Positions 1-63,232 of a stretch of 64,000 nucleotides of DNA are shown here, piece after piece. The notes beneath the pieces are model-generated. The model made no database searches and was not told the origin of the DNA. It saw only the letters and a program-made list of their open reading frames with translations. The DNA is from Lingula anatina (Eukaryota > Animalia > Brachiopoda). The stretch is taken from contig CM120645.1 in the NCBI GenBank assembly GCA_051362555.1, positions 16,368,001 to 16,432,000 of the forward strand. Reading direction: 5' to 3'. The number at the start of each line of letters is the position of its first letter. Positions within the stretch are counted from its first letter, which is position 1. The translations under genes were made by a program, and so were the position numbers.

Positions 1-456
1 TTTTATCCTTCGTTTGATTTCTTTTTCCAGTGTTCGATCACTAAGGCTGAACCGTTGCCCAAGGTATATATACTCTTCTACTGCTTCTATCTCTTTGGTG
101 TTGACCTTCACTGTGCAAGGGGTGGTTAGTGGTCCAAACATCACCTTTGTCTTGCTGGTGTTCATCTTTAGCCCACTTTTTGCGCTTTCATCTGCTAACG
201 CCTGTAGCATTTCTTCGAGGTCTTTTGCATCATCTGCAACTATTATGATGTCGTCTGCAAACCTTAGGTGATTGAGCCTGGTACCGTCTATATTTATGCC
301 CTTGTCCTGCCAGTCTAGATCCCTGAATATACGTTCCAATGCTGCTGTGAACAGTTTAGGAGAGATTGTATCTCCTTGGCGTACACCTTTCTTGATCCTG
401 ATCTTATTGGTGGTCTTGTGTAGTTTGACTGTTACAGAGCTATCGGTGTATATGTC
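1..456 (-). mobile_element. RTE-clade non-LTR retrotransposon, 5'-truncated reverse transcriptase fragment running off the window edge
   Basis: Minus-strand frame is open and reads IRIKKGVRQGDTISPKLF...LNHLRFADDIIIV...GLKMNTSKTKVM...EEYIYLGQ...EIKRRIK. These are the QG-x-x-SP and FADD RT motifs typical of RTE-like LINEs. Confidence 0.9.
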
Positions 457-2401: not shown

Positions 2402-2843
2402 CAACATTGGTCAAAAAGGTTGTTCCACCCCCATTTCCATGTGCTTTTATTTTTACAAATGATCACCTCATGTCTAACATTATTAATGTTTAAAAAATAT
2501 AAAATAGTGGTGAAAATATACACATTTAAGCCATTTAGTAAAACTTATAAGAGGTACCCCCTTAAATCCACTGTTTCACTGTGACTTCTACAGGTGTAAA
2601 GAAATGTCTATTTTAATATTTTAATTTAAAAATTGAAAAGACGCCATCAAATGCCACCAAATTCCGTGCCTAACAGCGTGTGCGTCTACCGCGTACTGCA
2701 ATTATCTCCTGTAGACGGCGCGTCAAGCCTTCAACATGGGTAAATATTCTCTTATGTGGGACAGTGCCCCATTCTTCTTAAACAAGTTGGGGAAGATGGT
2801 CCACGTTTTTATGGGGTTGGTTCAACCTTTTTGACCAATGTTG
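2402..2843. mobile_element. Non-autonomous Tc1/mariner derivative (MITE), internally deleted relative of 17314-18928
   Basis: TIR CAACATTGGTCAAAAAGGTTG / CAACCTTTTTGACCAATGTTG with TA on both sides; the body aligns by eye with 17314-17780. Confidence 0.85.
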
Positions 2844-2988
2844 TATAGCATGTACTCTGTACAAGACTTCGCGACTGTATATTTGTTCCATGTGATGCTT
2901 TATGCGTTCTATGTCAAATCTAATTATAAGTAAAAAGAGAATTCAAGATCAATTTTTATATACATGTATCTATTTAAAGAATGCTCAC

Positions 2989-3268
2989 TGTTTTCATAAC
3001 TGTATCCATAGACAAATCCATACAAACGAGGCCATTCTTGTGCAGGTAGACCAAGGCGTCCGCCAGTTGCATTAGACAACCTACCGGTTCCTTGAGTAAA
3101 TTATGGTCCAGCTGACCCGGGAGGACTTTACGACTGCCCTTGCCACTGCTGAAGACCCTCAAACTTGTCAGACGCGGGGTTATGATAAGAGCTGGCAGTT
3201 CGTTTGTTGGATCCAAATAAGTACCCAGTATGGTGGGAATGAAACTCCTCTTTTGTTGCTTCATTTTA
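2989..3268 (-). CDS. Coding exon 7: kinase hinge to catalytic loop (QLADALVYLHKNGLVCMDLSMDTVM)
   Basis: Acceptor ttttttccag| keeps phase 2; donor ACA|gtgagc; subdomain VIa/VIb-like sequence. Confidence 0.85.
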
Positions 3269-6200
3269 CTGGAAAAAATCATTTGTCCATGTGTAGTGTC
3301 CTATTTAATGTATGGTGCCAGTCATAAATCTCTAGGATTAAAAAAGAAAAAAACTGAACTGAAGAAAGCATAGAGAATGCTTAAGACAAACAAATGTCAA
3401 CTTCAAATTTCTACACACCTCATTTCAATGACTTCCTCACGTACTTGCTTCTCACTTGTAGCCCCTTTAAATCGTTTTACAGATATTTCGATGGATTGAT
3501 CTTTTGGGGATTTTAAGATGGCAGGGAAAACTTCAGTCCAGTTCCCTTCACATGTCGTTTGCTTTTTCACAGAATTGATGTCTGGTTCCACATCTGTCTC
3601 GTTATAATCATACGAGAAAAGATGTGTCATAGCAAAATCTTCCAGCGCATTGCTAACTGTGGTAAACTTCTTGACGACAGGGTCATAGGTGTCGATGAGC
3701 TGCTCTTTAGACCGTTGGTCTTCTTTAATGGTCTGCATGTAGTTTCGTGTTGAAGATATAAGCTGTGGAATGGACTTGCTCATCATCTGTAGATGATCCC
3801 TGGCCTCTTGGAGTTGAGCATCGACATAGGCCTTTGTAACATCATGCTTAGCCATAATTTTCAAAGCCTCGGATGATCTGTCTCGCAGAAATTCACATTT
3901 GTTCTGCTCATACTGCTTTAAGATACGTTTCTCTTTCCGCTTCCTAACATGCTTTTTTACGTCAACAAAAAAAAATGCCGGTGACGCAAGAAGCATGCCC
4001 AACGCACCGATTGGTAAAATAATTGGTGAAAATAAACCGAGTGCAATTTTTTCACCTAGCTTCAAGTCTACAATTGACATTTTGTTCACCTCATTGGCCA
4101 TTAGGTCTTGTAACTCCATATATGTTGCCAAATCTCTACTTTCCCTGGAATCTGTTTCCGAGGACCTTTCCAGCATGTTTTCAATCATTCGCAGCTCAGA
4201 TTCAATCAACTGGAAGTCTTTAGTGAATTTCTGGAACAAGTCTCTCTTGAGGGTTTCAAAATGTTTTTTCTCCGTTTCCCAAGAGCTAATGGCATCAATG
4301 ATTTTTTTACAGATGGCATCTTCTATTCTACCTTCTAAATAGTTCCAACTTAACCCATAAGGAGCTTCCGCATTGGTCCATGAGGTGACTCGAGCACAGA
4401 CAGGGTCGCTGCTAAGATATTTAGAAAGAGAATCAGTAATGGTGTCACATTCTTTATTAAGGTGGCCCTCTAGTTTTTTCAAAATTTCTTCCGACTTTTT
4501 CTCAAGTCTGTCCAACCGTTTCTTCTGTGAGTTGTGCTGAGCCTCGAGCTCATCCCTAGTCAAATTGGCAGAATGAAGATACTGCTGGGCATAATCTATG
4601 GTGCGCTCTACCATATGTTTGCCCCATCTAAATATAAACATAAGTCAACATCTTACTTGGTTGATTCTCTTAGCAAGATCTTACCTGTATTATAAAGATA
4701 TTTTAAACACACCCAGGAACTGGCCTAGAATCTTTATGAATTTAAACGTACACTATATGTAAATATGGTTTTAATATCACAATTTGGTATCTTGTTATTA
4801 CAAAAACAAATACGGACTATTTTCGATAAAGTTTACTTGAATACATTGGATAAATAAAGAATGTAAACTTAAACACACCGGTGCACATGCTCCGTCCTTC
4901 TTTGCAAACTCACTGGAATCAGGCTCTTGATGCCTCTGACCAGTCGCCTGTAGTCGTGAGTCATGTACCCAGCCTGACTGTGCTGCCACGCCATTTTAGC
5001 AGAAAGGGTAAATATCTGCTTTGATGAATCCATGGGCCGGTTCCAGCCCTCACTCACAGCCAAAGACACCTTCTCTAAAGCCTTTTCCCTCACGTCCTCC
5101 GGTACCAGATCCCAGCGGTTGCAGACAAAAATTGCACAACCAGGGTCAAATACTGGCTCACCAGAAGTATCCTTCATATCTTGAAGTTGCCGCAGCAATG
5201 TTTGGAGCTAAAGAAAGAAAACCAGAAAAGGAACATGCTATCATACGGTTTTTACACATTTAAAATCGTTTTATTTAATCTCACATCTTCAAACGAAAAA
5301 CAAAAGGCTATCACACAAATTACATCTGAAGTGAGCTGAAAATAATGTCTGAAAACCAAAATATTATTTCTGACTGTTGGTGGCCGTTTTGCATTTTAAA
5401 CAGTAAAGGAACGAAATCAGTTTATTTTCTCTGCACATGTGGGCTAAAATAGTGGTTTGAGCATAATAAATGAACATTTTATGTACTCTCTGGTAAAAAG
5501 CCGTATTTCAAGGGAATAACCCATCTGCCATTAAATCCCGCAAACTACATTGCTTATTAGTGTATAACTGAATTATAAGTACAGTATATTTTCGAATGGT
5601 CTACTTTTGGTGTCCAAATATGACATTTATGTCTCCTCCATCCCAGTGTACCACAAACTTGCATAGTCCCATTCATAACAAAAGTTAAGGCAACAAAGAC
5701 TATCGTTTGTTCATGATTTGGCCAAACAAGGCCGCTTTTATTATATAAACTCCTAAAAATTTTAACAATAATAACAATGTAGCAAATTGTTGCCTGCATT
5801 CAATGTAATGGCCTTAGGGATAAAAATTAAATATGAAATATTAAATAAGATTCATCATTCTAAAAATTATGATGTGACGTGTCAGCAAAAGGTATTATTT
5901 TCAAACAATTCTGCACAAATTTCGTTTGTGGGGTTGCAAGAGGCCCACACTATGCAACGGTTATCGTAAGCTGTGTTCCACGATAAGCAATTATTTGACA
6001 ACAGTAGTGCATCTAATTTAGCTTGTCTGATGGCAAAGGCCAGGTCAATGCATTGCAGGACTCGCAATACAATTCTACATAAGTACCGGCATGACAATGC
6101 TGTTAGCGGGTGACCTAACCCCTACCTCGGAAATGCAAAGACACAAAACGTGCCACTCACTCCCACGAAGCGGAGCGGAATATTAAGACACAAAACGTGC

Positions 6201-9200
6201 CACTCACCCCGACGTAGCGCAGCGGAACAAAAAGTTACAAAAATAAGGCATGAAAAATTATGCCACTCAACCTGAAAAACAGGTCGGAAATGCAAAGACA
6301 CAAAACGGTGTTGAAATTAATTATATACTACAAACATCTAAAAAATCAAGGGCTGTTACCCTTGTGGAAAACCTGCAGTATGTTTAAAGATCTAAGGATA
6401 AAAGGAAAAACCTCCCGGTGGCCCTGAAAAGGTGGGGCCTGAAAAGGTGGGGCATGTAATGAAGTTGAAAACCGGATATCTGAAAAGATCAAGGGCTGCA
6501 ACCCTTGTGGGAATCCTGCGGTATGATTTAAGATCTAAGAATAAAAGGTAAAGGTCGGGGTCTGAAACAAGAAGAAGTGCGTCTGTGGGCCTGAAAAGGA
6601 CTAATGATGAAGTTGGATTCTCTGCCCAGAATTTGGTAAGTGGTCTGCAATGGAGGAACTATATATCCTGAAAGAAGTATTGGTTTAGAAATTACTTCTG
6701 GTCATCTGTAAGAGAAATAAGGGACCGTTCACATGGAAAGTCCATTTTTCAAAAAACCCACCCTCTACTCGCGGTATCTTGTGATCACGGTCTGTGCCCT
6801 GTTACCCAGTTACTTCCGTGATCACAAGATACCGCGAACAAAAAACAGATTTTCAGAAAATATACCCTCCATGTGAACTTGCTGTGCTGAACTTGAATCA
6901 CCACCACATGTGAAACGCCGAATTCGTCGTGAAAACGACGGACTAAATCTTCAATGACTTTACATTGGTTAGGAGGGGAAATATTACGGTCGGAAAAGTC
7001 GTTGGACCCAATGATAAGTACGAGCTGTTATTGGCGAATATAGCCTTGATTCGTTGGTATATTAATTTATATTTAACGGCTGGTATAAATAGTGGCTATA
7101 CAGACCACCCGTTTACGTTAATTAACAAAACACTTTTAAAATATAAAACAATACAACTTTAGCTACACTACGTTCTTATTAGAAACCGGCCATCGGTGAT
7201 TGAGGAAGCTTGTGTATGAATTGCCCTCTTTAGGCGCTAGCACGGTTGCCAGGGTGTACGTATGGGATCATGTAAGACTTCTGTCTGTATTCTTAAGGGA
7301 GGGATGTACCCAAATATAGCTAAAAATCGTCATTTTTGGGTTTTTATGTCTAATTATTGGTTAAATGTGTATCTAACGTTTAACAGAATAAAATGTTTAC
7401 ATTTTGAACAAAAAATATGTTTTTTCTGAGGATTCTGATGCTGCACACATCGGCACCGGTGGCCTGGTCTATGCCCCGCCTTCGTTGCCAAGGGTCGATG
7501 GCATGGGTTAACTCGGTGGGTGGACCTTAGCAGCATCAGCACGACTAGAGAAACAATAGAACAGGGATGCGCCATGCCCCCTTTGTCATTAAACAGCGAT
7601 CGGCAAAGCAGTGCCTATTGTTCCGTTTAAGCTGTTGTGATAGTCGCTCTTGATTGTGATCAGCGCTAAGATGAATCTTTTCCGACACATTGGATTTGCT
7701 CGAAATACGCGTTCTCCCTTGAATTGCTTGTTGTTACACGCGCTCTTTCAATTTTCTTGTTAACTTTTTGAGATACGCAAGAAAAGAAGAAAATCCCGTT
7801 GCTTGCTACCCGTGACAACAATCGTCATACTTTCGATCCATTTTCGACAACAGCACGATGCAGTTGTTAGATTTTAAAAATCCTATCTATGCAACTTGGG
7901 CAATATGGCCATCGAGCCGCAACTAGCCTCTAGCCCTCTCGAGCTCTTAATTATTTCTGCTTACCAATGATCATCGGAAAATTAACTATGATAATATCTA
8001 ACCTTTCCACCTGAAACGCAGTTAACTCAAGTGTCAAGATGACATCAAGCTCTAGTCTAGCTAGCATGCCATACTAATTTCAGCTTATATGCAATTATTT
8101 ATTTGTGCATCACTTAAAGTTAAATACCTTGATTTCGACTTATCTGCAATTATCAGGTTAGGCATTATTAAAAGTTAACGATCTGATAATATCCCCCCAG
8201 TTTCCATCTCGCGTCCAGTCCACTCTTGAAAGTGTGCTATATAAACAGAAGCACGTGCAGTTGTAACTCATAAGTCTTAGACCCCATTTCCAGAGATAAG
8301 ATCGATCTACTTTAGATCGACCTAACTCCCTATGGGTTCACGTTAAATAGCTGTCAGCCGGGCGGACACGAAAGTTAATTACCCCCTTACAGCTTGTAGT
8401 AGGCGGGACGGACATTTAAGGCGGATTATCTGAGAGTAATGTAGTGGGGATAGATCGATCTAAAAGCTCTGGGAATACAGGCTTACGTCGGTAAGCATAA
8501 ATCGCTGTCGAGATGGGTAAAAGAAAGAGAAAATCAAAAAATACATTTCCTGAAGAACGTAAGATAATATTAACCATTGGACGAATACTGGAATCACATA
8601 CAAGATTGTTTTGCGTAAATAAAAGTCTTGAGCCCACATCCTAGCAAAATTATTCACTGGGTGGCGTAAAGGTTCAATACATGTGCATTAAAAAAAGTTC
8701 AGCAAATAAATCTAATGATATTGCTAGAATTCGCGCGAACTATATCAGGCTGAGATCACGAAAGAGCTTATTATCAACATTTTGATTTTTCCGAATTATT
8801 CATTTCGACTATAAGATATGAGCTGGAGAATAAGCCCTTGCATTTTAAACGCAAATGCTGTTATACCGCGAGGTACAGTTCTGGATGCATGTACGCACTT
8901 TCAAGGCCGACATAGTGCTTTTTTCTTCAACAATTAACGCAGAATTTTTCCTGACTCACCCAACTTTAGACATCTTCTAACAAAGCCTTTCTGGTTGCGT
9001 CTATTTCTTGTTGTTGATGGTCCGATCGGCGTCCTGTAACACGACCGTGTTTTCGAACCATTTTTGCTTGGCGAATGTGGACAAGACCGGCTGCGATGCT
9101 GCTATTGTGTTCACATCCTAGAGCGCATCCCTTACATTTTCCCCGATGGCAATTGACGTGGCCACTGATTGCTTGCCTTACTTGATTGCCTGTCAATCAT

Positions 9201-12200
9201 TCTGGTAGTGCTAGCGGTAACCCCTTGAAGTTACTATGAGGAGGCGAGATTAATACAAAAATAAGATTTTCTGACATCCAAATGCATGCAAACTAGCTAA
9301 TTTAATAGAGTACCGTTAATAGAGTACCCATCTGCGCGATTGTCAGAACGATAACAGGTAAAGCTGTCAACAATTTAATTTGCTATTTTGGACAATTAAC
9401 CTCCCTGAAAGGGTTCTTGCTCTTTTTCTTTGCTTTCAATATTGACGACATAGCGTTATCGTAGCAAGCTATTACTGTCTACCTGTACACCTGAGGGAGA
9501 CCAAATTCACCATGCTAATTATGAAAAGTATGCACTAAAAGTGCTTTTTAAGAAATTTTGATTGATCCTCTCTTTTCTAATTTATAGAAAGCGAAAATTT
9601 CCTAATATTTTGATGTAATTGACGTTTTTATAGATAAAATCAACAATAGTTTCTAAAGAAAAATCCCTGACTCCATCCTGTAGTACTTTGTTCAAGTGTT
9701 ATAATGCCATTAAAAGCAAGTTTATAGCTGTCCAGGTGCCTGAGAAAATCAGGTGTATAAAAATGGCGGTTTTTGTCCCCAAAATCCCAATATTACGTCA
9801 AACGATGAAGTTGGAGCTTAAAAGAATTGGGTATCTCCCGCTTTTCATAATATACTAAGTTATATACAATGAACTAAGTTATGTACAATGAACTAAGTTG
9901 TCAGTAGTGCTCTTTTTTACACCCAACATTCTTAAAAAAATCCGTTTGTGGCTTTCTTATACCCCTTACCAGGTTAAATCTCCATGCATAATTTAAAATG
10001 TACTAACGTACGTAAAACTGCACATTTAGTAAACACATTAAATAAATGGTTTTTTCAATGCTACTAGTAGCAAACAATGCTTTTTTTCTTGATCTACAAC
10101 ATGTTTTTGGGTTTGACAAAGCTTACAAATTTGCAAAAAGTTTTGCGTACAGACGCAGAACTTGTGTTTTAAGTTATAAAATGATAAATCTTTAAATTAT
10201 TTAATATTTCAAATGAAATAACCATCAGAAACAAATCCTCAAAGCATAAACGAATTAGGATAACGAACCATTTTATTACAGCAGTTCCCATTTTTTCTTT
10301 AATATACCGCTCTTTTTCCTGTTTTTCCTCAACACGTTTTCTTCCACGGAAGTAATGCCTGGACATACGCATGCTTCAAGATACCCTGAGAGCAATATCC
10401 TTTATTGCACTGCATGAAAAAAACACCTTTCATCGCCTTTCATCTACAAAATGTTATCGAAAGATGATCCCTCATCTTTGATCATCCTTTCCTGACGAAA
10501 ATGTCATCTTTCACCTATCATTTGTAAAAGGTCATCTTTTTATTAACTTTTATCTCTCGGAAAGACCATCATTCACATTTTCATTAACTTTCAGTTTTCA
10601 AAAGTTCAACTATCACCTTTTACATTGCAAAAGGCCACCTTACATTCCGTTTTTGTTAACTGGAAAGGTCACGTTTTGTTTATCTTTTATTTTCCGAAAG
10701 CTTAAAACTGATTTTATAATATCGAGTGGTGATCTTTTGATTATATACTTTTTATTTTATGTACATGAATTAATTCCGAATTTTACAGTAAGCGCAGTAT
10801 GGAAAAAGCTAATACTTTTGCAAATTGTTTGCATGATGAAATGGAAATGGACTTTGATTAAACTATTCAACAGAGAGATTAAATGTGGTGCTTTGCATTT
10901 TGGAGAAATAATTACGCAATCTTACATTGGCTCGGGTTTATGTACAAATATATAGCATTCAGTGCAGTGAAAGAAGTGTTCACCGCCTTTTACCTGAGGT
11001 AAACATATAATCTTGACGCTATGAACGACAAACAACTTTCAGAATCGAACGTAACTTATATTTTTATTCCAATATTGTCAGGATTTAAATACACTGCTAT
11101 ATTGTAAGTTTATTAGTAAATTTAATCAGCTTCAGATAAAATCTCTGAGTAGGTTTTTTTATCCGCTTTGAACAAAATAAACTGATAATGTTTTTGGAGG
11201 TAGGCCTTCAGGAATGCAAGTTTCATTGAAAGTGAATCTTCAGTGTTTTCATAACTTTTTTTATGAAAATTAGACAACAATCGTGGCGCTCAAAAGATTA
11301 AGATAGTAAAAGACTTATTGTAACAAAAAGCCATCGTTAAAAAGAGGTGGTTTGGTTGTTGATTTATTAGTCAATATTACACTCATTTCAGCAAATACTA
11401 CCTAACACAAGTATTGAAAAAGATGAATACATACATGAACAAACCAGTAATCGAGCGACATTTGAAAGTCCTGAGGATGTAGAGCGTCACATGCAGGAAC
11501 TGCAGACTGCTTGGACTAAGAAAAATTCGAAACATGTAAAGGCGTTGCTGAGGAGCACACGACCACACCAACGAAGTATCCATGCTTCAAAGAAAACACT
11601 TATGTAAGTTTCTTAAGCTGCTCATAGCTAGTTTTGCACATGTCAAAATCCAATGTCAAATTTAAGCTTTTAAATATGCTAACTTTAAGAAATCTTATAG
11701 ATTACAGTGTCAAAATAAAGAACCTGCTGCCAAAATTGTATGCCGGGTCTCGTCTCTCTGCTATGACTGCCTGACCACCCTTGTTTCATGGTTTGATCCA
11801 CCTTGATCACATGTTTAGCCACCATAATGTTTGGCGTGTAAAGCTTTATACAGATAAAAAGTTCCTTTGTTGCTTGTGTTGATGCGCATTTTACAGATGT
11901 TTTTAGCCTAGAAGTTTGGCACTTTCTTTCAATAACCTGATCGTTTGTAATACGTTTTAGGCACATCAAGCTGATGCGCATGTAATTATCAATGTATGAT
12001 TGTTTTAGCTATGTTTACTACTTGTATTCAGAACGATGATTTAGTAATAACTATATTGTGTAATCAGCATATTTGTCGGTTTTATATGACTTAAAAACTT
12101 TGTGCGATCACTGATGTGAAGAACATTGAAGTGTGTAACGTTTTTATTGTAATTTTGTCCTCTTACAAATAATGCATTTTGATTGAAGGACACCAAGTGT

Positions 12201-15200
12201 TCTAGATTACTTTCAAAATAGCAAGTGTTCTAAATTTCTTTTAGAACACATCTTAGAGTTCTCAAAAAGTAACATTTGAACACGTGAAAAATGTTCTAAA
12301 TTTACATGTAAATGTGTTCTAAACAAAACACAAAAAAGAACATAAAAATGTTTTCTATATTTCACAACGCTTACTGTTCTAGCGTCAGAACACTGTTTAA
12401 AGCGTTCTCAAGATGTAACATTTGAACACGTAAAAAGTGTTCTAAATTTACATGTAAATGTGTTCTAAAAAACACAAAAAAAGAATATAAAAGTATGTTA
12501 TATATTTTACAACGCTTAGTGTTCTAGCGCCAGAACACTGTTTAAAGCATTCTCAAAATGTATCATTTGCACACTTAAAATGTATTCTGTTTCATGTTTA
12601 CGACGCGTTCCCGAACTTTGGAGTGTTAAAAGTGAGATTCTGCGCACAATTTGGACGCAAACAGCCCGTATACGAGCCCGTAAGGCCGGTTGTGACCGAG
12701 GCTTCATATAGAGACCCATGCTGTAGAAACCCTCTACACATAGGGTGGGCTTGATCCACCCCACTCCTAATGGGAATGAAAGTACATTTTGTACAACTAA
12801 AGTTGTTTTGTTAATACCCCTTTGCATCTGTTTTGCATCTATTTTGCAGCAAACTAAAAGGCTCCATCACACACACCCTAGTTTTGTTATTTAACCTTCA
12901 ACACCGGCACTATTTGTAATAGCACTGTAGTTTTTTTTTTTTTTTTCAAAATGCTACGAATGGCTTCTATTGTCAAGGAGATCACTGAAAACCTATTGAC
13001 TTGGTAAAAAGTACAAACAAGAGACCACCAGCCTGTAATTAATGATCAGATATCCCGCACGAAAACGCAGTAGATGCTCCAGCGCAGTAGACTACTGCAA
13101 TCATACTGCAAATATGCCTCAAATCTGCTTCGCATTGCGAGTTAATTAGCATATTTGAAACATGCTTCTATCATGCTGCTAATCTACTGCATTAATGCTC
13201 CTCCTCTGTACAACCCTATGCAATTTTTGAAGTAGAATTGCAGTAGGGTATACTGCATTTCTACTGTAAATATGCTCCACACCACTACTGCGTTAATGCT
13301 TCTTTGCTACTTCGATACTACTGCATTTTCGTGAGGGATTTACCATCGCAAGATCAAAAGTGTTTTGGGCAGTACATCTGATTAATTATCTATTGTTTCT
13401 TAATGCATTTTTATCTTCATATTTATATATTTTGTACAATGTAACCATTGGAGTGCGTTCTATTTTTTCCGGTGAATTAGTTTCATTGTCATACAGATTA
13501 TTGACCATAACCGTTACTACGTATACTTTATTTTCATTCAGTTTTTGCTTTCACCTTTTCATTAGTTTGGGACAATATATACCTTGTTTATTTTATGGTT
13601 ATTGGAACTGTACCAGCTTTTTGCTTTCAGCATTTTTAGGATTCTTTAGAGAGCCTTTTAAAGTGTATATTAGTCATCAATATAATTATTGAGACAAAGA
13701 AATGCTGGTCTAGGAGAAAAGTTACATAAAATGAATAAAGGTGCTGAAACAAGTTGTCCTAGTTATAATATTATTATATAGTAAAGTGAAATCAGTGATG
13801 ATTTCTGTGGGAAAATACCATAATGCAACACCCATCTCTCTCTTCTCTAGGATTAAAAAATACAATTCCCTTATTATTTACTTGTGCCACACTACAAGTA
13901 TTTAACATATAACTCCCTTTACACCACAAGACATGTTTCAATAGAGAAAGAAGTTGCCCTGCTTCATTAGACTGCATACAACAGGTATATTTGCCCCCCC
14001 CCCCCCCAACACATAAAACTCGTTAAATAATAAAATAATACAAAAAAAACAAATAATATTCTTTCACTCAGCAGATATATGCATAAACTTTATGAAAGTA
14101 AATTATTTTTAGAACTTGACGGTGGGCACTTTGCCAGTGGTTACCAGCATTCATCCTTTGGGCACTCATGCTTGGTCTGATGATGGTTCGACCTCCATAA
14201 TAACTAAAACTGAATACAAGCGCCACCGTTGGCAAGTTCTAACCCAAATGTCTTCAGCAAACCTATCCCAAAATTGACATGGAATAAGGAAATCTTATAT
14301 CAACGCTATGAATAAGTAGTTTCATTTCATCAGCAAACCAAACATGCACCCTTTTGCGCACGTAAAGGTAATGAAGGGTCCATTTTTAGGGGAGGTTTTC
14401 TCTCTGTTTGGTGAAGATTTTTCTTATAGGTACATCTGACCCTAGTCATTCAGTAGTCTGCTAAATTTCCTCTTTGAGCCTGTTTGTTACCATGTGGCCC
14501 ACTGAGAAAAAGCTGTCAATCTTCTCCTTTGAAGACACATCTGGTAGAGCATACGATTGTTAAGATACTTCATGGTATATTACCACTTCATGGGATAAAT
14601 GCTCTGATTTTACTGTCAAATCGACTTCATAGGATAAAATGCGACTTCATCTCCACATAACAAATTGTCCACCACAGGGAAAGCTTGACCAATATAAGCG
14701 TACCTAGCCGAGACAACCCCGTCCCCATTCCAATTCTGCCCCTATAGAACTTCACACTAGCTTCTGGTTGCAAAATGCGTTCCGGTTGAAAAAATCGTTT
14801 TCACGATATTCTTTGGTTGCAAAATGCGTTGCAGTTGCAAAATGCGGCTCTACACCAGTTGTATGAATCCCCAGCATTTCATTCTCCCCAACATCTATCT
14901 GGACAGTTGACGGTTTCAAACCTTCAGACTTCAGACTTTCCGACCTTAAGCGCTTTCATTAAGTATATAGGCCAGGAGGTCAATCTTTTTAAACGACCAA
15001 GGTATATTCGAAACATTTATGTTGCATATCAATAGAAAAGCCTATACTTCTATAACACGAATAATGGAATAGACGGTTTGTTAAAGATATTAATGTATAC
15101 CTAGTGTGGAGCAAAATTAAAAACTCTCTGCCTAGTAGAGTTCTCTACCTACAGTGGAAAGACATACATTCTTGCTACTGTGTACTAGCCACATCTATAA

Positions 15201-17273
15201 ACCTGCGCCGTCAATTAAATCACACATGGTCATTTTTATGCCCTAGTTTAAAGGCAGGGAATGTGTTTATTCATACTCTTCATTTGTCTTATACATCTAG
15301 TGCCTTAGACCCGCCATGATTCAACGTCCAAATATTATCAGTTTTTAATCGTCCTGATATCTGAAAAATCTCAAAACTAAATGGGTAAAACAAAAAACTA
15401 GCTTTATGCTTTCCGTCACTGGACCAGAACTCTTGAAATAAAGTACATTAATTATAATTAACCTCACGGGTATCTACGAGAACATCTGAAAATAACAGCT
15501 TCATTAAACTCCAACGAGATAAAATACGCACTATCATGTGATTGAGTAATGTAACTCCCCCCCCCCACCCCACACCCACCATTGCAAAACCACGCGTCAC
15601 TCTCGAAATCATGATCTAGAATGAAACATCATATCGACCTTCGCGCCTAATTTCCACATCCAACCAGAACTGAAATATTTTTGGATACAATGTACCATGA
15701 AGTGGCAATATACTACGAAGTCTCCTAAGGGTCCTTATTTTTTAACCAATGAAGTCGCCTTCTATCATGAAGTAGTAATTCTTATCCTATGAAGTGGTAA
15801 TATACTATGAAATATCTAAACATACGATCCTCCCAGGATGTAGTCCTAGGGGGAAACGGTGCCGATGCCTGATCACACATATTCCTTTGACCGCTGCCGG
15901 TGGGTGACATTACGGTTGATTGGTTCAAACGGAAACACCAAAAAAACCGTTTACGACCAGATAGCGCATCCAGAAAACTCACCAAGATCTTTAAGTCGAG
16001 ACTTTGCCAAGCAATAACTACAATGGACAAAACTTACTTGCGACAGTGAAACTATTTTCATATTTCTGACAATTGTGGCATGTAGTGAACTTTGAAATTA
16101 AATCATCTCCAGTTTCCGAAAAATTCCATTATTTTTGCAAGAGTAAACAAGGGTTTTATTTCTTTGGTAATTAGCGGTCACTTTTGGAAGTTCATGTTCA
16201 TGTTCTTCGCAACTTTAAGTATGTCCACTTGAATAGCTTTTATGCAATACACACTTAAAATGATTTGATGCAATTTTGTCCGAGGAAAATTGCACAAGTA
16301 TATTGCCTGGAGTATTATTGGAAAATTGAGAAAACCATAAAATACAATATGAGTGAAAAAAACTTCTTGCATTCAACTTACCCTATCTTCTTGTACTCCT
16401 CCTGACTTATCAGTCATAATGACGTAAATGAAGGCAAAGACGTCATTGTTGGCAATGAAGTTAAGAACCACGTCATCCATGGCACCACTCTCACCAATAC
16501 CAGGGCTGTCGATGATATACACACCACTCTAAGGGTATAATACGACTTTGTAAATGTATTTTGTGGATACTAAATATAAAGGCATCGTACCTCAAACAGA
16601 AAGTTTGGCAATTTTTCTGTGAAATTTTGCATGTATATACCAGTGTCCGATTCAGTTTCATGTCACAATTTTGCAGGTCGATCTCTAAGAAACACGATCG
16701 TTAGATCATTTTTCCATAAGCCATGTCTTCATAAAATACTACATTACCTTTAAAAGTTCCAATGGCAAATAAACATCGACCGTGCACTTTTCCTGTTTAC
16801 CCTCCCTGGCTGCACCCTTAGGGAATAGAACACGCTCTAAAGCCGAGCACAAATCATCAGGGTTCTTGATGGGGACCTTTAACGAATCTCGCCTGCCGTC
16901 AGGTTGTTGTACCACTTTGACTACTCCAGGGTTTTCTCCATACATTATTCTTGTGATCGCAGCTGTACAGCTTAAATGGGCCTCCGGTAGGATCTTCTTG
17001 CCAAGGAGAAGGTTCAAAAGCGTGCTTTTCCCCGAAGAAGTTTCGCCTTGAATGTGATAAAGCTTGTCAGTGAAAATAACATTATAGAGCCTTCATATCA
17101 CACTGCTAACAATGCCTTGACAAAGCACAATATAAAATACATGAATGAATGAACAGATAAATATAATGCAAATATAAAATATATAAAGTAAACCAAAACA
17201 TGAACGACGCAATCGACCAACACGCGAGCATGAATATAAAGGATAAAGGAAGAAAATGCTGCAAAGAGTAACC

Positions 17274-17316
<43 letters not shown>

Positions 17317-18925
17317 CATTGGTCAAAAAGGTTGTCCCACCTCCATTTCCATGTACTTTTATTTACAAATGATCACCTCACAGCTGTGATCTGTTAGAAA
17401 AAGTGCTTTTCATTACGGATACCGTGTCTAGCATGATTAATGGTTAAGAAAATACAAAATAGTGGTGGAAATATACACATTTTATACTATTTAGTATCCC
17501 CTCAAATCGACTGTTTCACTGTGACTTCTACAGATGTAAAGAAATGTCTATAAAATTGAAAAGACGCCATCAAATGTCACCAAATTCACACACAATCAGC
17601 ATTAGGGCGTGCTCGTTAAAGATCACGTGCCTAACAGCTTGTGCGTCTACCGCGTACTGCAATTATCTCCTGTAGACGGCGCGACAAGCCTTCAACACGG
17701 GTTACAAATCTGTTTTTGGGATACTGTCCCATTCTTCTTAAACAAGTTGGGGGAGTTGGTCCACGTTTTTATGGGTTGGTTCTCCTTTGCATTGCACACT
17801 TCATGTTACAGTTGATAAGTGAGTTTAATATCAGGGCTCAAAGCTGATGGTTCCATCCTTAGACCATTGTGTTTTTTCAACAAACACTTACCAGGTGACC
17901 AGTCATGATAAAGCCTGGAGTTAACCCCAAAGTCAGTACCTGAAGATGGAATGAGATATCAGCTACTTTCAGTGATCCCACAGGCACCTGAACCTGGCCA
18001 TTCATCACTGGAAGGAAGTCGATTTTGATGCAGAATCAAATTATTCATTGTATCCCATCGATGGTCAAAGATAGTCCATATACATGTTAAAAATGCCTCT
18101 TGGAAGGGTGTGTGTGTATGGTAATATCGCCTGAGGTGTTAGATCAATCCGCATTTGGAGAACATTCTAAGCCAATGGTATTAGTAAATTGTTCCTTTTG
18201 GAACAAAACGTAACAGGGGCATTTTTTTGTAACATTCTCAACAGAAATCTCACTCCATTTGCAAGAGGTGACTTCAGGGATGCTGCTGGCTCCATTGTGA
18301 CAACGCACTTGCTCACACTCTCGTCTGGCAAACGATTTGTTGCAGAAACACAGGGCTCTGAGGATGGGACAGCCGTCTTTGAGTCCTGATATTAATCGTA
18401 CTGAGCACCTGTGGCATAAATTGGAATGTGCATTGCAGAGGAGAACCAATTCCTAGAAATCTTAACCAATTCCGCCACGCTCTTTAGGATGAATGGGACT
18501 ATATCCCACAAAACAGGATTGTTACCCATGTTGAAGGCTTGTCGCGCCGTCTACAGGAGATAATTGCAGTACGCGGTAGACGCACACCCTGTTAGGCACG
18601 TGATTTTTAACAAGCAAACCCTAATACTGATTGTGTGTGAATATGGTGACATTTGATGGCGTCTTTTCAATTTTATAGAGATTTCTTTACATCTGTAGAA
18701 GTCACATTGAAACAGTCGATATGAGGGGGGTACCTCTTATAAATTTTACTAAATGGTAAAAAATGTGTATTTTTTCACCACTATTTTGTAATTTTAACCA
18801 TTAATCATGTTAGACACGGTATCCGTAATAAAAAAGCACTATTTCTAACAGTTCACAGCTCTGAGGTGATCATTTGTAAATAAAAGTACCAGGAAATGGG
18901 GATGGGACAACCTTTTTGACCAATG

Positions 18926-18980
<55 letters not shown>

Positions 18981-20290
18981 CTGATGATAACACAGTGAGC
19001 AAACATGCATTGTGTTTATGCTATGCAATCCATTGATAAAAGCCGGGCGGCGTTATAAAAAGTGTCCAGCTGTTAAAAGTTACTACTTTGGGTACTATCT
19101 CACTATTTCTGAGCTCAAATGTTTATATTATGACAAATAAGCAGAGGACGAGTACTAACTGGCCGATCAATTGATAATAAACAGTGACTTGTTTGATTGA
19201 TAACTCCTACCTGCTACAAGTATTGGGCAGTTACCAGTTTCGAGCATGTCGATCCTCTTTTGTACGTTTCCTTTCGCGCTCTCAGATAAAATATTCTCTG
19301 CTTCCAGTCTCTTTAAAATGCTCAGGTCAAGTAAGGGTAGAGAATTCTTAAGGGTTTCAAAAGTCGACTGAAGTGCGATTCTTCTTTGTTTGTCATTTTC
19401 TCGTAGTTCAGCGAAAACATCTGCAGCCTACAGATATATATATAAATAACGTTTGCACCCCGACCGGTTCTAACAATATATTCAATGTCCTCCCTGAATA
19501 TACTGTTGACACCTGCCCTCTTTGAGGGCAGCAGTTATTATATAGACATTTTCGATCAGGCACCGTATATAGTCTAGTGAGGTTTTTGAAAAAAGGCTCT
19601 GCATAAGAGGCAAGGGGCATTTTGGGGTAAAAGTTGGGAACCAGGCTTATTAGCATAATTTTGGGGTGCTGAATCCGATTTACCCGGTTCCCAAGCGAAA
19701 TTTTGCGTTTTTAACGGTCTAATTTGCAAAAAAACAATATGGCCGCCAGATTTCCTATTTTCTGCAGTATCTCTGGAACTAGACAGGCAAATATGACAAA
19801 TGAAGTGTCTTTACCTATATTTTCAGGGTCGAGGAACATTATTAAGATGTTTCTGTTAGAATTAGATTTACGCAATTTTCCTAAATATGCAAATTATGAT
19901 CGCCATTACTGAAAAACCGTTTTACTTCTGTATCTCTGTAACTAGGCAAGCAAACATGACAAATGAAGTGTCTACACCTATGTTCTCAGGGTCAGGGAAT
20001 GTGATAAATCAGATTTCTTGTCTGATGGGTAGCACTGACTTTGTGAATCATGTCCGAGTAGCACCTTTTATTGTTTCTTCCCTGTATCTGTCAAACACTA
20101 GTCAATCTGCTGATAGTTAGAACCTGCCTCCAGAACTGCTCTTACGTACGTGTCAGCCAAACTACCAAAGGTCACTGCATTGTCAGGCTTTCCCAGTGAA
20201 ATTGCCAGTGCTTGCCCATCAATTATAAGGTAAGGTGAGCAGAGGCGGATCCAGGATTATTTGAAGGGGGGAGTCCGCGGATGCAAAGCC

Positions 20291-20321
<31 letters not shown>

Positions 20322-23300
20322 ACTTGGCAACGGGTTAGGGGCCTGCTGAAGGGCCACGAAAAATTTTGGTATTTAAGGGGTGAACGGTGCCATTTGGTAT
20401 GGTTTACAAGTATGATTCAGCTAGTCAAAATTATAATTTCAAAGGGGGACCAGAATTCGAAGGGGGGGGGGGGGAGGGGGGGTCAGGACCCGCCTTACGT
20501 AATATGTGGCAGTTTCTCTGAGCAGTCCTCTTTGGCTGGTTACAGAATGCGTATAAAAGGGCAGCAGTTCTGCAGAATAAGTCTCTATATTTCGGCAACG
20601 TCCAGTCAGAGGTTTGCTATTTTGCAGACTCTTAGCTGACCTTACGGTATGTGAACTAACGGCAGCAACTTGCCACACTATTGTTGCATTATGCCAGAAT
20701 GGACAGAAGCACACTGCTATTGCCAGACAGCTAAATGTGTCCCAGGGAGCAGTTTCTAACGTCTTACAGAAACACACCCAGACTGGTGCATTAACACCAC
20801 GGCCAGGACGTCCTAAAGTCACCACCAGAAGGGAAGACCGCTTGCTTCTGCGATTATGTCGCAACAACCGGACAAAGACAACTCTTGCTGTACAAATTAC
20901 CTGTGGCAAATTACCTGTGGCAAATTACCATTCAAAAGCATGTTTCTAGAACTCTAGTGAATGCAAGGCTACTTTTAGCTGGTTAACTCTATGAACAGAG
21001 CAACATGGTGGGCTAGACGCCATTTGCGCTTCCAGGCACAGCACTGGGTTCATGTAGATTTTTACAGATGAGGCAGGGTTTGAGTTCCACCACCGCGATG
21101 GCTGAATCAGAGTCAGTAGGTTTCCAGACGAGTTACTGCATGAGGATTGTGTCACACTACAGTGACTTGTGGCCGTGGCAGTATCTGTGTATTGGCCGGT
21201 TTCCACTCTGGAGCCAAAACACTATTGGTGGCAATTGACGGAAAACCCAACCAGATAAAATACAGGGACGTTTTAGAGAATACTTGCTTGCAATTTGCAA
21301 GAAGGTACTTCCAGGACAACTTCATCCTGCAAGATGACAATGCCCGACCACACCATGCCCATGCAATAACTGCTTTTCTGCAAAACCAAGAGGTAAACCA
21401 GTTGCCTTGGCCGACGAAATTCCCCTGACAAGAATTCTATAGAAAATCTGTGGGCATAAATCGCTAGCAGAATCAAGAGCTTACCCGTCCACCCTACAAA
21501 TCGGCACAAGCTTAAGCAAGCTCTGACTAATGCGTGTTACACAATACTGGATCATACTCTCAGAAACCTCTCTGCATGGAATGAGGGCTCTGGTTGCAGT
21601 TAGAAGAGGCTGCACGTGTTGTTATCAGTTTCCATTTTTCACATTTGTCTTGATGATTCTTTTGTGTGAGAGAAAATCCTTACCAACTGATATTCTTGAT
21701 AATATCGAGTTCATAAGAATTTAATACCTCGTTGTTATCAGCTATAAAATTATCCATGCGCTGTTTATAACGCTGATTTGAATACGTATTTAAATTAAAT
21801 TTTTGATGATGTATTCACACGGGTTGATTTATTTAAGCCATATCGAACACGATAACAAGTGTTTTTTCATCTATTACTAATATATGGGAAAAATCAAAGA
21901 AAATATGTTTGAAAAAATCCATATTAAATGTGAAGTCTGTACATTGCATTACATGAATTACTTGGTTCAGCAAATCCCTCCATTGCATTAATAAGGTAAT
22001 CTTTTTTAAATCTAGGTAAAAGGGGCAGTTGCGTGATTCAATGTTTACATCCCAATGGCAGCGCAGTTTTTAATTGCAAAATTCAATTCAGATTCGAATA
22101 ATTGCTACAGTGTGACAGTGTAGCACTCATTGCTGATTTGATTATAGTGAAAATGTCTTAAGGTAGATCGGTCGTTACGTAATTTGACGATTTGCGCAAT
22201 TTCAGCGCATCGTCAATCGTCTCTAACGACACTTCGGTCTGTTTTATCAATTTGAGGGAATAAAACAGTTATCTATAAGATAAACACACATTATCAACTT
22301 GTATGTAACTCTGTATGATCGATACAGATTTTCAACAACGTTTGTCGACTATGATTCCATACGACAACTGTAGCACGTTCATAGACTTGCCCTTCAAGAA
22401 ATCGTCGGAATAGCTCCTTCTCCAATTTGATTTGGCACTAGAAAATGTATGACAGCTAAAGCTCACAAATTATGCAGTAGGTGCTATATCATGTAAAGAA
22501 TAAGTGTTGTAAATTCCAATCAAAGCGGCTGCGTACATTTTGAGGTAGAACGCCCTGAATGTGCTGCATACCGTAGCTTAGATTTCGACGAAAACCGGAA
22601 GTGCGTCGTAACGCCACTCATTTGGACTTAGAGAAATTTGGGCTGAGGAATATTTCGTAGCTTATACAAATGTTCAGAAAATGGCCATACAGCTTGAAGA
22701 AAATTCACTAATCAAAATTGAAACTGCGTTATATTATACAGAAAAATTGTGCACTTCTGACCTTGACTTGTCAGTGTAAACAAAGTGTACTGAACGCATC
22801 GAAAGCAAGCACGTGAATGCCGCATTTGATACTTTGTATCAGACGCTTCATTTTACTTGACAACACAGTGTTTACGATGTCACGTTCATGTTATATTCAT
22901 TAATTAACAACAGCGACAACAATAAACTATTTTCATATGCATGAGTATTTCCCTTATTACTCTCTTCAATAATTTTGTTGTAAAGTTAATGGCTTACACC
23001 TCATCAGTATGACAAATCTGAAAATAGCTGAGTATACTCTCTTTAACTGTTAAACATAATGAAATTTTTAAATGTTCTTAGATGTCTCTCCACACACACA
23101 CACAAAACAAGAAATCATAAAAAATAACGATTTAGTAAAAACACCCATTTTCCCATTGATTTGAATGGGGACTTCCGACTGTTGCGTCACGCAGGGTGTA
23201 ACGCACTTCAACTTGGCGTAGTTCTCTTATTTGGTCGGTGACCCCCAACTTTTTTGGCAAAATTAAAATCTACTTGGATGCCTCTTTACACAAAAAGTTT

Positions 23301-24479
23301 TTAAAAAAAATTCAAACGTCAGAAAGTCATAAAAAATAATGCTTTAGTGAAAAAACACTCATTTTCCCATTGATTTGAATGGGGATTAGTGCGTCACGCA
23401 GGGTGTAATGCGCTTCAACTTGGCGTAGTTCTCTTATTTGGTCCGTGACCCCCAACTTTTTTGGCAAAATTAAAATCTACTTGGATGCCTCTTTACACAA
23501 AAAGTTTTTTAAAAAAATTCAAACGTCAGAAAGTCATAAAAAATAATGCTTTAGTGAAAAAATACCCATTTTCCCATTGATTTGAATGGGGACTAGTGCG
23601 ATATGCAGGGTGTAACATATCTGGGCGTAGTTCTCTTATTTGGTCGGTGACCCCCAATTTTTTTTGCAAATTTTTAATGTACTTGGGTGTCTCTTCAAAC
23701 AAAAAAATTTTTAAAAAAATTCGAACGTTGGAACATGTAACGACCGATCTACCTTAATCACTTTCCCTAACGCTGAAAACATGGGTGTGGGCACTTCATA
23801 TGTCATGTTTGCTTGCCTAGTTAACGTAAAAGCAGTTCTGAAGGCAGGTTCTAACTATCAGCAGATTGACTTGTGTTTGACAGATACAGGGAAGAAACAA
23901 TAAAAGATGCTACTCGGACATGATTCACAAAGTCAGTGCTACCCATAAGACAAGACATCTGATTTATCACATTCCCTGACCCTGAGAACATAGGTGTAGA
24001 TACTTCATTTGTCATGTTTGCTTTCCTAGTTACAGAGATACAGAAGTAAAACGGTTTTTCTAACAGAAACATCTTAATAATGTTCCTCGACCCTGAAAAT
24101 ATAGGTAAAGACACTTCATTTGTCATATTCGCCTGTCTAGTTCCAGAGATATTGCAGAAAATAGGAAATCTGGCGGCCATATTGTTTTTTTGCAAATTAG
24201 ACCGTTAAAAACGCAAAATTTCGCTTGGGAACCGGGTAAATCGGATTCAGCATCCCAAAATTATGCCAAGAAGCCTGGTTCCCAACTTTTACCCCAAAAT
24301 GCCCCTACTATTCATCTTTTGTGGAAATCCCACTAGACTAATAGAAAACAACGTGAATTTAACCAGAGATTTAACTGCAAATATTTAGTAAAAATCAATA
24401 TGTGGTCTTTGTAGAGGGTTGTTGAAACTAACCCATGAAGATATTGTTGAAACAGGCCGTGGCGCAAAAGGCACTGTTC

Positions 24480-24527
<48 letters not shown>

Positions 24528-25064
24528 GTGTGTACATTCTTCAGTAGTTGACTTGATATTTTAATTACAATACCTTTAGAATCTACAATGTAAAAGATAG
24601 GCCTCAAATAATGTAGTCACAATAGTAAATGTCGCATTATGGTTGTTTTCGTGTGTTTGCGAATGTGTGTGTGTGTATGTGAGTGTTTGTGTGTGTTTAT
24701 ACTCTAGTTTGCGTCATGAAACTATATGACAATATTACATAATGCACTGAAATGACGAGATGATTTGTGAATGGTTATGTTCCTTAAGAACTTAAAACAT
24801 ACGTGTATATGTTTACGATACAAATGTGGGATTTGAGTATCCACGCAAGTTTTTGCATAAAAAGAAAGATATATACAATACCTTTTCCAATCTTGGAATT
24901 TGAGAGTGTTTTGCCTCTAAATATAAGCAAAGCCTCTCTTTTAGTTCATGTAGATCTTCAATATCGTCAGTGTTTATATCTAAACCATCGCAAATACGAT
25001 AGCCTTCCTCGAAGTCGTTCAAAGACTCGATGATGTCTGGGGTTATGTCACTTACGTTAGCCAT
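2989..25064 (-). CDS. Multi-exon gene: mitofusin/bacterial dynamin-like GTPase fused to a C-terminal degenerate protein kinase (DSTYK-like architecture); 3' end not found in window
   Basis: join complement(24882-25064, 19211-19427, 16748-17046, 16382-16528, 4879-5207, 3419-4627, 2989-3268). All introns are GT-AG with compatible phases (0,1,0,0,2,2), giving 2664 nt = 888 open codons. Motifs: G1 GETSSGKS, G3 DSPG, G4 NRWD, G5-like FTLSAK, a hydrophobic segment, kinase ISVK and LHKNGLVCMDL. Confidence 0.85.
3419..4627 (-). CDS. Coding exon 6: helical stalk, hydrophobic hairpin (IALGLFSPIILPIGALGMLLASPAFFFV) and kinase N-lobe
   Basis: 1209-nt open exon within ORF 3403..4641; acceptor tttag|, donor AG|gtgtgt; degenerate Gly-loop CEGNWTEVF, ISVK lysine, EEV alphaC glutamate. 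Confidence 0.9.
4879..5207 (-). CDS. Coding exon 5: G4 (FVCNRWD) and G5-like (FTLSAK) motifs
   Basis: Acceptor tttctttag|, donor CG|gtgtgt; 329 nt; overlaps ORF 4869..5198. Confidence 0.9.
6727..6879. repeat. Short palindromic MITE-like element with a perfect 21-bp inner stem
   Basis: Outer IR GTTCACATGGA/TCCATGTGAAC; inner IR CGCGGTATCTTGTGATCACGG (6770-6790) / CCGTGATCACAAGATACCGCG (6816-6836). Confidence 0.65.
8280..8482 (+). mobile_element. ~210-bp dispersed MITE-like repeat, copy 1
   Basis: Homologous to 54369-54583 (same orientation) and 55916-56130 (inverted); internal IR GATCGATCTA/TAGATCGATC. Confidence 0.8.
12265..12590. repeat. Tandem repeat, ~146-bp unit, about 2.2 copies
   Basis: GTAACATTTGAACACGT recurs at ~12269 and ~12415, with a degenerate copy at ~12560. 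Confidence 0.75.
12630..12704 (+). mobile_element. Right-end fragment of the Harbinger MITE family
   Basis: Matches 35372-35442, ending CCGGTTGTGACCGAGGCT. Confidence 0.75.
13054..13337. mobile_element. ~280-bp MITE (CCCGCACGAAAACGCAGTAG TIR), copy 1
   Basis: TIR pair at both ends; homologous to 34697-34966. Confidence 0.8.
16382..16528 (-). CDS. Coding exon 4: G3 motif (SGVYIIDSPGIGE...GGVQEDR)
   Basis: Acceptor cccttag|, donor AGG|gtaagt; 147 nt, phase 0/0; DSPG motif. Confidence 0.9.
16748..17046 (-). CDS. Coding exon 3: G1 P-loop (GETSSGKSTLLNLLLG) and G2 region (SCTAAIT)
   Basis: Acceptor ttcaag|, donor AAG|gtaatg; 299 nt; dynamin-family P-loop. Confidence 0.9.
17314..18928. mobile_element. 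Tc1-derived foldback element with ~550-bp inverted arms, flanked by (TA)n on both sides
   Basis: Termini TAACATTGGTCAAAAAGGTTGTCCCA / TGGGACAACCTTTTTGACCAATGTTA. Both arms carry a decayed Tc1 transposase C-terminus; the right arm reads SPDINRTEHLW...EWDYIPQNRI...LSRRLQEIIAVRG. Confidence 0.85.
19211..19427 (-). CDS. Coding exon 2 (AADVFAELRE...NCPILVA-G), strand preceding the P-loop
   Basis: Acceptor tctgtag|, donor CAG|gtagga; 217 nt open, phase 1 joins exon 3 to form CPILVAGETSSGKS. Not present in the ORF track. Confidence 0.85.
20262..20492. mobile_element. Truncated poly-C/poly-G MITE (GGCGGATCCAGG-type terminus)
   Basis: Starts GAGGCGGATCCAGGATT, followed by long C and G runs, ending GGGGGTCAGGACCC. 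Confidence 0.5.
20614..21620 (+). pseudogene. Degenerate Tc1 transposase
   Basis: HTH region IARQLNVSQGAVSNVL...RPGRPKVTTRREDR; DDE region FTDEAGF, FILQDDNARPHHA, LPWP...NSIENLW; broken by frameshifts and stops. Confidence 0.9.
22162..23753. mobile_element. Non-autonomous Kolobok-like element nested in the Academ-like element
   Basis: TTAA on both sides; TIR GGTAGATCGGTCGTTAC / GTAACGACCGATCTACC; GG terminus rather than the piggyBac CCC. Confidence 0.8.
23115..23730. repeat. Three tandem ~210-bp subterminal repeats inside the Kolobok-like element
   Basis: TTTCCCATTGATTTGAATGGGGA...GGCGTAGTTCTCTTATTTGGTC recurs at ~23150, ~23363 and ~23570. Confidence 0.85.
24481..24527. repeat. (TTA)n microsatellite
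   Basis: Direct reading. Confidence 0.95.
24882..25064 (-). CDS. Coding exon 1 (MANVSDITPD...IPRLEK) of the dynamin-like/kinase gene
   Basis: ATG at 25064, upstream acceptor ttttag at 25115, donor AAG|gtattg, phase 0 matching the next exon; acidic helical N-terminus. Confidence 0.65.
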
Positions 25065-55575: not shown

Positions 55576-55586
55576 CTCCTCCCCAC
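55576..55586 (-). other. Polypurine tract
   Basis: Minus strand GTGGGGAGGAG directly before the TGTAG start of the 3' LTR. Confidence 0.85.
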
Positions 55587-56130: not shown

Positions 56131-56155
56131 TAACTCTCCACCACGAATCTTGACC

Positions 56156-56716: not shown

Positions 56717-56729
56717 ATACCCCTCGGTA

Positions 56730-63231: not shown

Positions 63232-63232
63232 A

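Follow-up and report, generated by a model that had tools for sequence, protein, structure and literature searches.

The 64,000-nucleotide window analysed here, from the brachiopod Lingula anatina (GenBank assembly GCA_051362555.1, contig CM120645.1, positions 16,368,001 to 16,432,000), carries on its reverse strand a gene split into at least seven exons, hereafter the window gene. We are nearly certain of the architecture of its product: a GTPase of the BDLP/mitofusin type with a stalk, a hydrophobic tip and a C-terminal kinase domain without key catalytic residues. The exon borders show GT at all seven donors and AG at all six acceptors, the phases are compatible, and the 2664 coding nucleotides give 888 codons without a stop or frameshift. 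The translation aligns without gaps, over 888 of 888 residues, to two L. anatina RefSeq proteins of 1027 residues each, P0001 (LOC106174708; 85.6% identity) and P0006 (85.5%). Given these borders, the absence of stops and the ungapped match to LOC106174708, the seven-exon model of 888 or more residues put forward in a first-pass annotation of this DNA is real. The motifs named there were all located, with GETSSGKS at residue 134, DSPG at 240, NRWD at 312 and FTLSAK at 348, followed by the hydrophobic stretch of about 28 residues and the basic patch KKHVRKRKEKR.

The long junction from 16382 to 5207, whose failure the same annotation had named as a reason to doubt the model, is supported independently, because the intron positions recur in two unrelated animal loci from metagenome collections. 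One of these (L007, 56% GC) has introns at residues 61/62 and, with a slash marking the intron, at VAG/ET, LK/xG and EDR/L as in the window gene; the other (L010, 35% GC) shows the last three as far as its contig reaches. In L010 the VAG/ET intron is visible from both sides, with the acceptor before the exon-4 equivalent and the donor after EDR. The sole basis of the 3419-to-3268 junction is its GT-AG signals and the ungapped match to the relative. A single exon (4627-3419) encodes stalk, hairpin and kinase N-lobe, so that the stalk-kinase fusion is independent of splice prediction. For residues 889-1027 of the relative the 64-kb window offers no credible match (best E 0.15), and the gene therefore extends past the left end of the window, with its last exon beyond position 1.

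Table 1 Exons and parts of the window gene, followed by mobile elements and repeats; positions count from the first letter of the window
Feature	Position	Strand	Description
Exon 1	25064-24882	-	Residues 1-61; small three-helix N-terminal domain, predicted helix-extended-helix (SAP/LEM/Rho-N-like) fold
Exon 2	19427-19211	-	Residues 62-133; first neck helices and first G-domain strand; flanking intron positions common to L007
Exon 3	17046-16748	-	Residues 134-233; G1 GETSSGKS and G2 Thr; open reading frame with this exon matches Pfam Dynamin_N (E 1.1e-11)
Exon 4	16528-16382	-	Residues 234-282; G3 DSPG
Exon 5	5207-4879	-	Residues 283-392; G4 NRWD, FTLSAK, start of neck helix
Exon 6	4627-3419	-	Residues 392-794; neck/trunk helical bundles, hydrophobic tip, basic patch, kinase N-lobe; single reading frame
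Exon 7	3268-2989	-	Residues 795-888; start of pseudokinase C-lobe; catalytic loop CMDLSMDT at 3024-3001
Intron 7	1-2988	-	Continues past window edge; contains the reverse-transcriptase fragment at 1-588
Hydrophobic run	3964-4047	-	Residues 586-613, 28 uncharged residues; KD19 up to 2.11; likely membrane-inserting tip, BDLP paddle equivalent
Basic patch KKHVRKRKEKR	3957-3925	-	Starts at residue 616, after the hydrophobic run
Ty3/Gypsy-type long terminal repeat retrotransposon	55295-63513	-	Young; terminal repeats 55295-55575 and 63233-63513, 99.3% identical; gag zinc knuckle, protease, reverse transcriptase, RNase H and integrase across several frames
PHD finger	56159-56752		After the integrase of the Ty3/Gypsy-type element
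Helix-hairpin-helix open reading frame	62508-63023		In the Ty3/Gypsy-type element
LINE-type reverse-transcriptase fragment	1-588	-	RVT_1, E 3.6e-19; in intron 7, same strand as the window gene
Broken DNA-transposon remnant	20581-21436	+	In intron 1; paired/HTH domain (E 4.3e-8); reads Tc1/mariner-like, catalytic part without Pfam match
Inverted copies	19613-20147 and 23824-24306		In intron 1; 97-98% identical; probably arms of a non-autonomous transposon
Inverted copies	17277-17884 and 18336-18965		In intron 2; 85% identical; probably arms of a non-autonomous transposon
Tandem array	44573-46587		Unit about 142 bp
Tandem array	23110-23728		Unit about 207 bp
Tandem array	12258-12588		Unit about 145 bp

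Residues 60-730 are placed with BDLP and the mitofusins by profile and fold searches alike. The Pfam scan that the first-pass annotation had proposed found Dynamin_N in P0001 (E 3.6e-20) and in the reading frame containing exon 3. A family profile built from 21 sequences without a full kinase matched Nostoc BDLP at E 1.3e-38, covering most of the BDLP length, with Campylobacter DLP (8.4e-18), MFN2 (7e-16) and MFN1 (1.2e-14) all behind it. The AlphaFold model of P0001 (mean pLDDT 79.9, pTM 0.72) had BDLP as its top Foldseek match (2.8e-17); VIA-align gave MFN2 a Z of 28.2 (rmsd 6.0, 351 aligned), Fzo1 26.8 and BDLP 21.0 (rmsd 8.0, 516 aligned), with SynDLP and IniA within this range. Neck and trunk bundles of the predicted model match BDLP, MFN2 and Fzo1 over residues 55-731. 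These results predict a BDLP-like fold for the window-gene product and bear out the earlier reading of a BDLP/mitofusin-type GTPase with a stalk and hydrophobic tip. The profile aligns the hydrophobic run across BDLP residues of about 520-595, the region of the tip, where G580 is the BDLP tip residue (PMC13663481). Model confidence is low there (pLDDT <50 at 547-622), and the shape of the tip is consequently not given by the P0001 model. At the other end of the protein, residues 1-58 form three helices whose best matches, weak but consistent, are to Rho N-term (Z 5.8), SAP (5.4) and LEM (5.0) domains; Foldseek returned no match for this domain at E <= 0.001.

Residues 730-1023 of the P0001 model match tyrosine-kinase-like folds at a Z of about 21 (VIA-align). 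The window gene keeps the beta3 lysine (ISVKRF at residue 773) and the alphaC glutamate (VREEVI at 787) of this fold. Its glycine loop is degenerate and its catalytic loop reads CMDLSMDT against HRDLKxEN in active relatives, retaining the aspartate and losing the histidine, arginine, lysine and asparagine. The DFG position lies beyond the window for the window gene; in all three close L. anatina relatives that extend so far (P0001, P0004 and P0006) it reads NIS. Judged by these motifs the domain is a pseudokinase and, as its catalytic motifs are degenerate, the protein itself probably does not phosphorylate. The kinase fold recognized in the first-pass annotation thus stands, while its catalytic degeneracy had gone unnoticed there. 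The GTPase motifs G1-G4 are all intact. Compared with the L. anatina copies, conservation is lower in the pseudokinase (78-79%) than across G domain and trunk (87-92%).

The window gene is not unique, since the pair of Dynamin_N and kinase domains is already present in databases, for instance in Atlas clusters of 56 and 62 members. At E <= 1e-30 a search of 50%-identity representatives returned 105 proteins, a number that rises to 488 at 1e-10, and named members come from the sponge Oscarella, corals, bivalves, gastropods, a cephalopod, nemerteans, Lingula, hemichordates and amphioxus. Most of the named entries are called uncharacterised or hypothetical, or bear the names of unrelated kinases. 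Both domains also occur together in Oscarella reading frames labelled complete and in Logan contigs of 3-5 kb. The little-characterised chimera of the first-pass annotation is therefore little characterised indeed, but it is no rarity: the database members of this old, expanded family number in the hundreds. In L. anatina itself, RefSeq holds eight close dead-type loci on different scaffolds, some of them possibly haplotypes, and several copies are truncated models.

Loss of the kinase motifs is common in the family. Among 205 proteins of 880-1250 residues (the window model included, shorter and longer ones left out), the kinase Lys/Asp/Asn/Asp set is kept in 110 and not in the other 95; G1 to G4 are all preserved in 104 of the 110 active sequences and in 83 of the 95 without full kinase motifs. 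After dereplication at 70%, 128 sequences remained, comprising 41 as deeply degenerate as the window gene (the dead type), 19 with other partial losses and 68 active ones. Active and dead types are collinear over 970 columns, and mean stalk identity among the dereplicated members is about 19-20%.

Some relatives carry additional domains, including HEPN_DZIP3 (E 9.6e-26), a trypsin-like domain and, on sponge relatives, a CARD-like domain (E 5.3e-5 and 0.034, each under the curated cut-off). Add-ons of the CARD-like, HEPN_DZIP3, SCAN and C-terminal trypsin-like peptidase kinds were seen on P0131 and P0137 (Oscarella), P0284 and P0281 (Ostrea, Mytilus), P0052 (Biomphalaria), P0057 and P0074. An nSTAND3 match on P0195 proved to be the P-loop alone. 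Single amphioxus models also show FMO, POT-transporter and colipase-like domains, which probably stem from wrongly joined gene models and were disregarded. There are also GTPase relatives without a kinase (P0136, P0112, P0119 and P0146), one of them unnamed with an N-terminal SH3 domain, others scallop and oyster proteins of 627-651 residues, one of which is named bacterial dynamin-like. Matches to the GTPase region only marked 21 further loci (6 from prokaryotic genomes and 12 from metagenomes, 1/64 part of each collection being scanned, and 3 from viral contigs); none of the three that were read (L001, L007 and L010) shows a kinase fusion in a prokaryote, which does not imply that such fusions are lacking. 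L001 holds at 1222-6035 a bacterial dynamin-like gene pair (598 and 576 residues) around a 427-residue reading frame that reads like enolase.

The paralogue and phylogeny checks suggested in the first-pass annotation place the window gene in a multi-copy family and inside a bilaterian pseudokinase clade. In a kinase-domain tree (IQ-TREE, 39 sequences), 18 of 18 bilaterian deep dead-type sequences form one clade (100/100). In a GTPase-stalk tree computed without kinase-trait columns (40 sequences), a branch sets the bilaterian dead types apart from the rest (73/65), and the window gene groups with dead types of molluscs and amphioxus (99/96). A GTPase-stalk FastTree of 128 sequences unites only 33 of the 41 dead types (84), with four changes needed. 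All trees used LG+G4 or LG+CAT, no mixture model, and were rooted on sponge and sponge-like sequences. The dead type retains conserved core residues. On this phylogenetic evidence it is fairly but not fully supported that the pseudokinase subfamily is as old as the bilaterians; the kinase losses in sponges and corals are separate events.

Dead and active types often appear to be neighbours. Taking locus numbers within 12 on scaffolds of the same length as a proxy for adjacency, 73 numbered sequences yield 13 clusters, nine of which mix dead and active types. An active neighbour was found for 12 of 30 dead-type sequences, or for 12 of the 14 that have any neighbour. LOC106174708, the closest relative of the window gene, lies beside the active LOC106174710, and one amphioxus pair seems to have undergone duplication as a block (78780/78781 and 64110/64099; each sister pair has 100/100). 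Bacterial DLPs likewise occur mostly as side-by-side pairs, and the Campylobacter pair requires heterotypic G-dimers for GTP hydrolysis (PMC6104087). From the gene neighbourhood we tentatively suggest, a little short of an even chance, that the window gene works with an active-kinase paralogue.

By analogy with its structural relatives, the window-gene product very probably acts on membranes as a GTPase. GTP binding, as in BDLP and mitofusin, would open a hinge; the tip would then be exposed to the bilayer and inserted into it, and dimers of the G domain could tether or bend membranes. Dead and active types, if gene neighbourhood is a guide, would co-assemble. The pseudokinase directly follows the last neck helix in the P0001 model and would therefore be carried along by the G-domain head. 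In a mixed oligomer it might lie beside the paralogue's active kinase, serving as its scaffold or allosteric partner, and membrane assembly would switch signalling on or off. The window-gene product would then pair, as the non-catalytic member, with an active-kinase paralogue and possibly serve stress or immune responses at membranes, a reading that we hold to be as probable as all its competitors taken together. A role in defence or stress, akin to the immune relation that the first-pass annotation held possible, is suggested by repeated expansion, low stalk conservation, the CARD-like, HEPN_DZIP3 and trypsin-like add-ons and the anti-phage protein DynA of Bacillus, which acts in phage defence through membrane binding (PMC12998192); such a role is an evenly balanced proposition.

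Several observations weigh against this reading. The adjacency proxy contains no coordinates, and its cut-off of 12 was chosen after the data had been seen. The four clusters that do not mix the two types consist of one with an active gene and a truncated dead-lineage model, one dead-only and two active-only, and 16 of the 30 dead-type sequences have no neighbour in lists that are incomplete. Several amphioxus clusters represent one locus across related species, leaving about seven independent cases (brachiopod, scallop, amphioxus); coral sequences, which were excluded from the count together with unnumbered ones, show arrays without the deep dead type. The 39 kb upstream of the window gene, the side that the window covers, contain no family member. 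Old tandem duplicates can also remain linked without cooperating. The tip reaches a KD19 >= 1.6 in just 16 of 41 dead-type sequences, the support of 73/65 in the GTPase-stalk tree is weak for a single origin of the dead type, and long pseudokinase branches may attract each other in the trees.

The linkage of paralogues could accordingly be a relic of tandem duplication, and the protein a stand-alone, homo-oligomeric GTPase for membrane fusion or repair in everyday endomembrane traffic, its pseudokinase an internal latch freed by an unrelated kinase. The BDLP/mitofusin fold evidence fits this explanation equally, only one of the eight L. anatina dead-type loci has an active neighbour in the incomplete lists, and zebrafish Dstyk, the nearest named look-alike, is required for membrane fusion with notochord vacuoles (PMC7012607). 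Repeated lineage-specific expansion, the low stalk identity and the CARD-like and HEPN add-ons, however, fit housekeeping poorly, and brachiopod, scallop and amphioxus have retained clusters that contain both types; we regard such a fusogen as unlikely, if deserving of attention. The protein might instead be a GTP-gated signalling switch like the Roco/LRRK kinases, using the membrane merely as a platform, with the dead form as a decoy for or brake on active paralogues. GTPase and kinase do lie on one collinear chain in both types, the dead types retain their G motifs and the hydrophobicity of the tip varies. Yet a mere switch would not need the neck and trunk that are retained at full BDLP length, and Roc and COR are absent from the eight Pfam families found in P0001 at E <= 0.1, so that we consider this account improbable.

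That the gene is a decaying duplicate, or that gene prediction wrongly joined parts of an ordinary mitofusin or DSTYK orthologue, is largely refuted and very improbable. The lower conservation of the pseudokinase and the truncated models among the L. anatina copies would agree with decay; against it stand 888 codons free of stops and frameshifts and the membership of the dead type in an old clade with conserved core residues. Mis-joining is opposed by the single exon shared by stalk and kinase N-lobe and by the complete-labelled sponge reading frames and Logan contigs that hold both domains. Fzo_mitofusin is absent from the same eight Pfam families in P0001 and a kinase ends the protein, and mitofusin identity was rejected on these grounds; with the profile also ranking BDLP above MFN1 and MFN2, the first-pass annotation was right to distinguish the gene from an ordinary mitofusin. 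A working DSTYK orthologue was rejected because the window gene lacks the catalytic motifs of an active kinase.

DSTYK (RIPK5) is nevertheless the nearest named look-alike of the family, in line with the resemblance noted at first pass. It is of similar length and has a C-terminal kinase. Half of the whole-protein Atlas matches (15 of 30) fall in a kinase-only set led by DSTYK-named clusters, with values up to 0.91; these clusters are without Dynamin_N, and the matches listed for residues 60-735 include no kinase-only set, both of which speak against a near relationship of the N-terminal parts. DSTYK-like names occur on 9 sequences among the best 120 of 359 profile matches, and a RIPK5 label on three of six members of one cluster. 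With a profile aimed at DSTYK, mitofusin and BDLP, the best 120 of 359 matches were family members only, and none of the matches listed in the family searches was recognisable as DSTYK itself by a motif check on part of them. The DSTYK kinase is highly conserved (93.7% similar between human and zebrafish; PMC7012607), whereas the window-gene family has diverged and exists in many copies. In zebrafish, DSTYK controls membrane fusion with vacuoles (PMC7012607). It also phosphorylates STING at late endosomes (PMC11933320), and the function of its N-terminal part has been termed unknown (PMC11507063).

A broader hypothesis would make the family a third animal branch of the BDLP/mitofusin type with a kinase of its own, reaching from sponges to amphioxus. 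In bilaterians it would have split into a linked pair of active kinase and pseudokinase that co-assemble on damaged or infected membranes and convert assembly into a phosphorylation signal, and vertebrate DSTYK would be a surviving single-copy cousin with a degenerate dynamin-like N-terminus. We consider this picture doubtful as a whole. The N-terminal region of DSTYK resembles a degenerate P-loop GTPase. If it is a degenerate dynamin-like module, this would explain why loss of Dstyk blocks vacuole membrane fusion, and if DSTYK descends from the family, that region becomes testable as a membrane-remodelling module, with relevance to vacuole fusion and STING signalling.

No description of a family combining a dynamin-superfamily GTPase with a kinase or pseudokinase was found in the main texts of the literature searched, which includes few subscription papers. 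One recent survey of the superfamily (PMC11789081) uses the word kinase zero times in its main text and has no kinase-fused member, another (PMC10280142), which excludes BDLPs and mitofusins, uses it once, in the title of a reference, and a term look-up in PMC12314368 gave no kinase-fused member. The window gene belongs to a large family of marine invertebrates that seems not to have been studied. Should dead and active types work as pairs, animals would use the two-dynamin logic of bacteria and add a signalling output to it, in the expanded clusters of oysters, scallops, corals and amphioxus.

Among known systems, Nostoc BDLP (PDB 2j68/2j69), Campylobacter DLP1/DLP2 (5owv) and mycobacterial IniA (6j72), the best sequence-profile and Foldseek matches of the family, follow the same domain succession as the window-gene product, from G domain through neck and trunk to a hydrophobic tip, for which the latter has a likely counterpart. 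Unlike these solved proteins, which are without a kinase, the window gene has introns, an N-terminal helix-extended-helix-like domain and a C-terminal (pseudo)kinase; the bacterial pair in L001 is likewise a plain DLP pair without a kinase. With mitofusin 1/2 and yeast Fzo1 the family shares the minimal GTPase-neck fold and, going by the mitofusin motifs as quoted in the first-pass annotation rather than by residue-by-residue alignment, DSPG and NRWD. It differs from them in the kinase fold that follows the last neck helix (residue 730), in its many divergent copies per genome and in a profile closer to BDLP. The arrangement of a pseudokinase on a membrane-acting module with a related active kinase resembles RIPK3-MLKL (PMC11507063), where the membrane module is a four-helix bundle and not a dynamin-superfamily GTPase. 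Roco proteins such as LRRK2 also unite GTPase and kinase in one chain, but there the GTPase is of the Roc-COR type.

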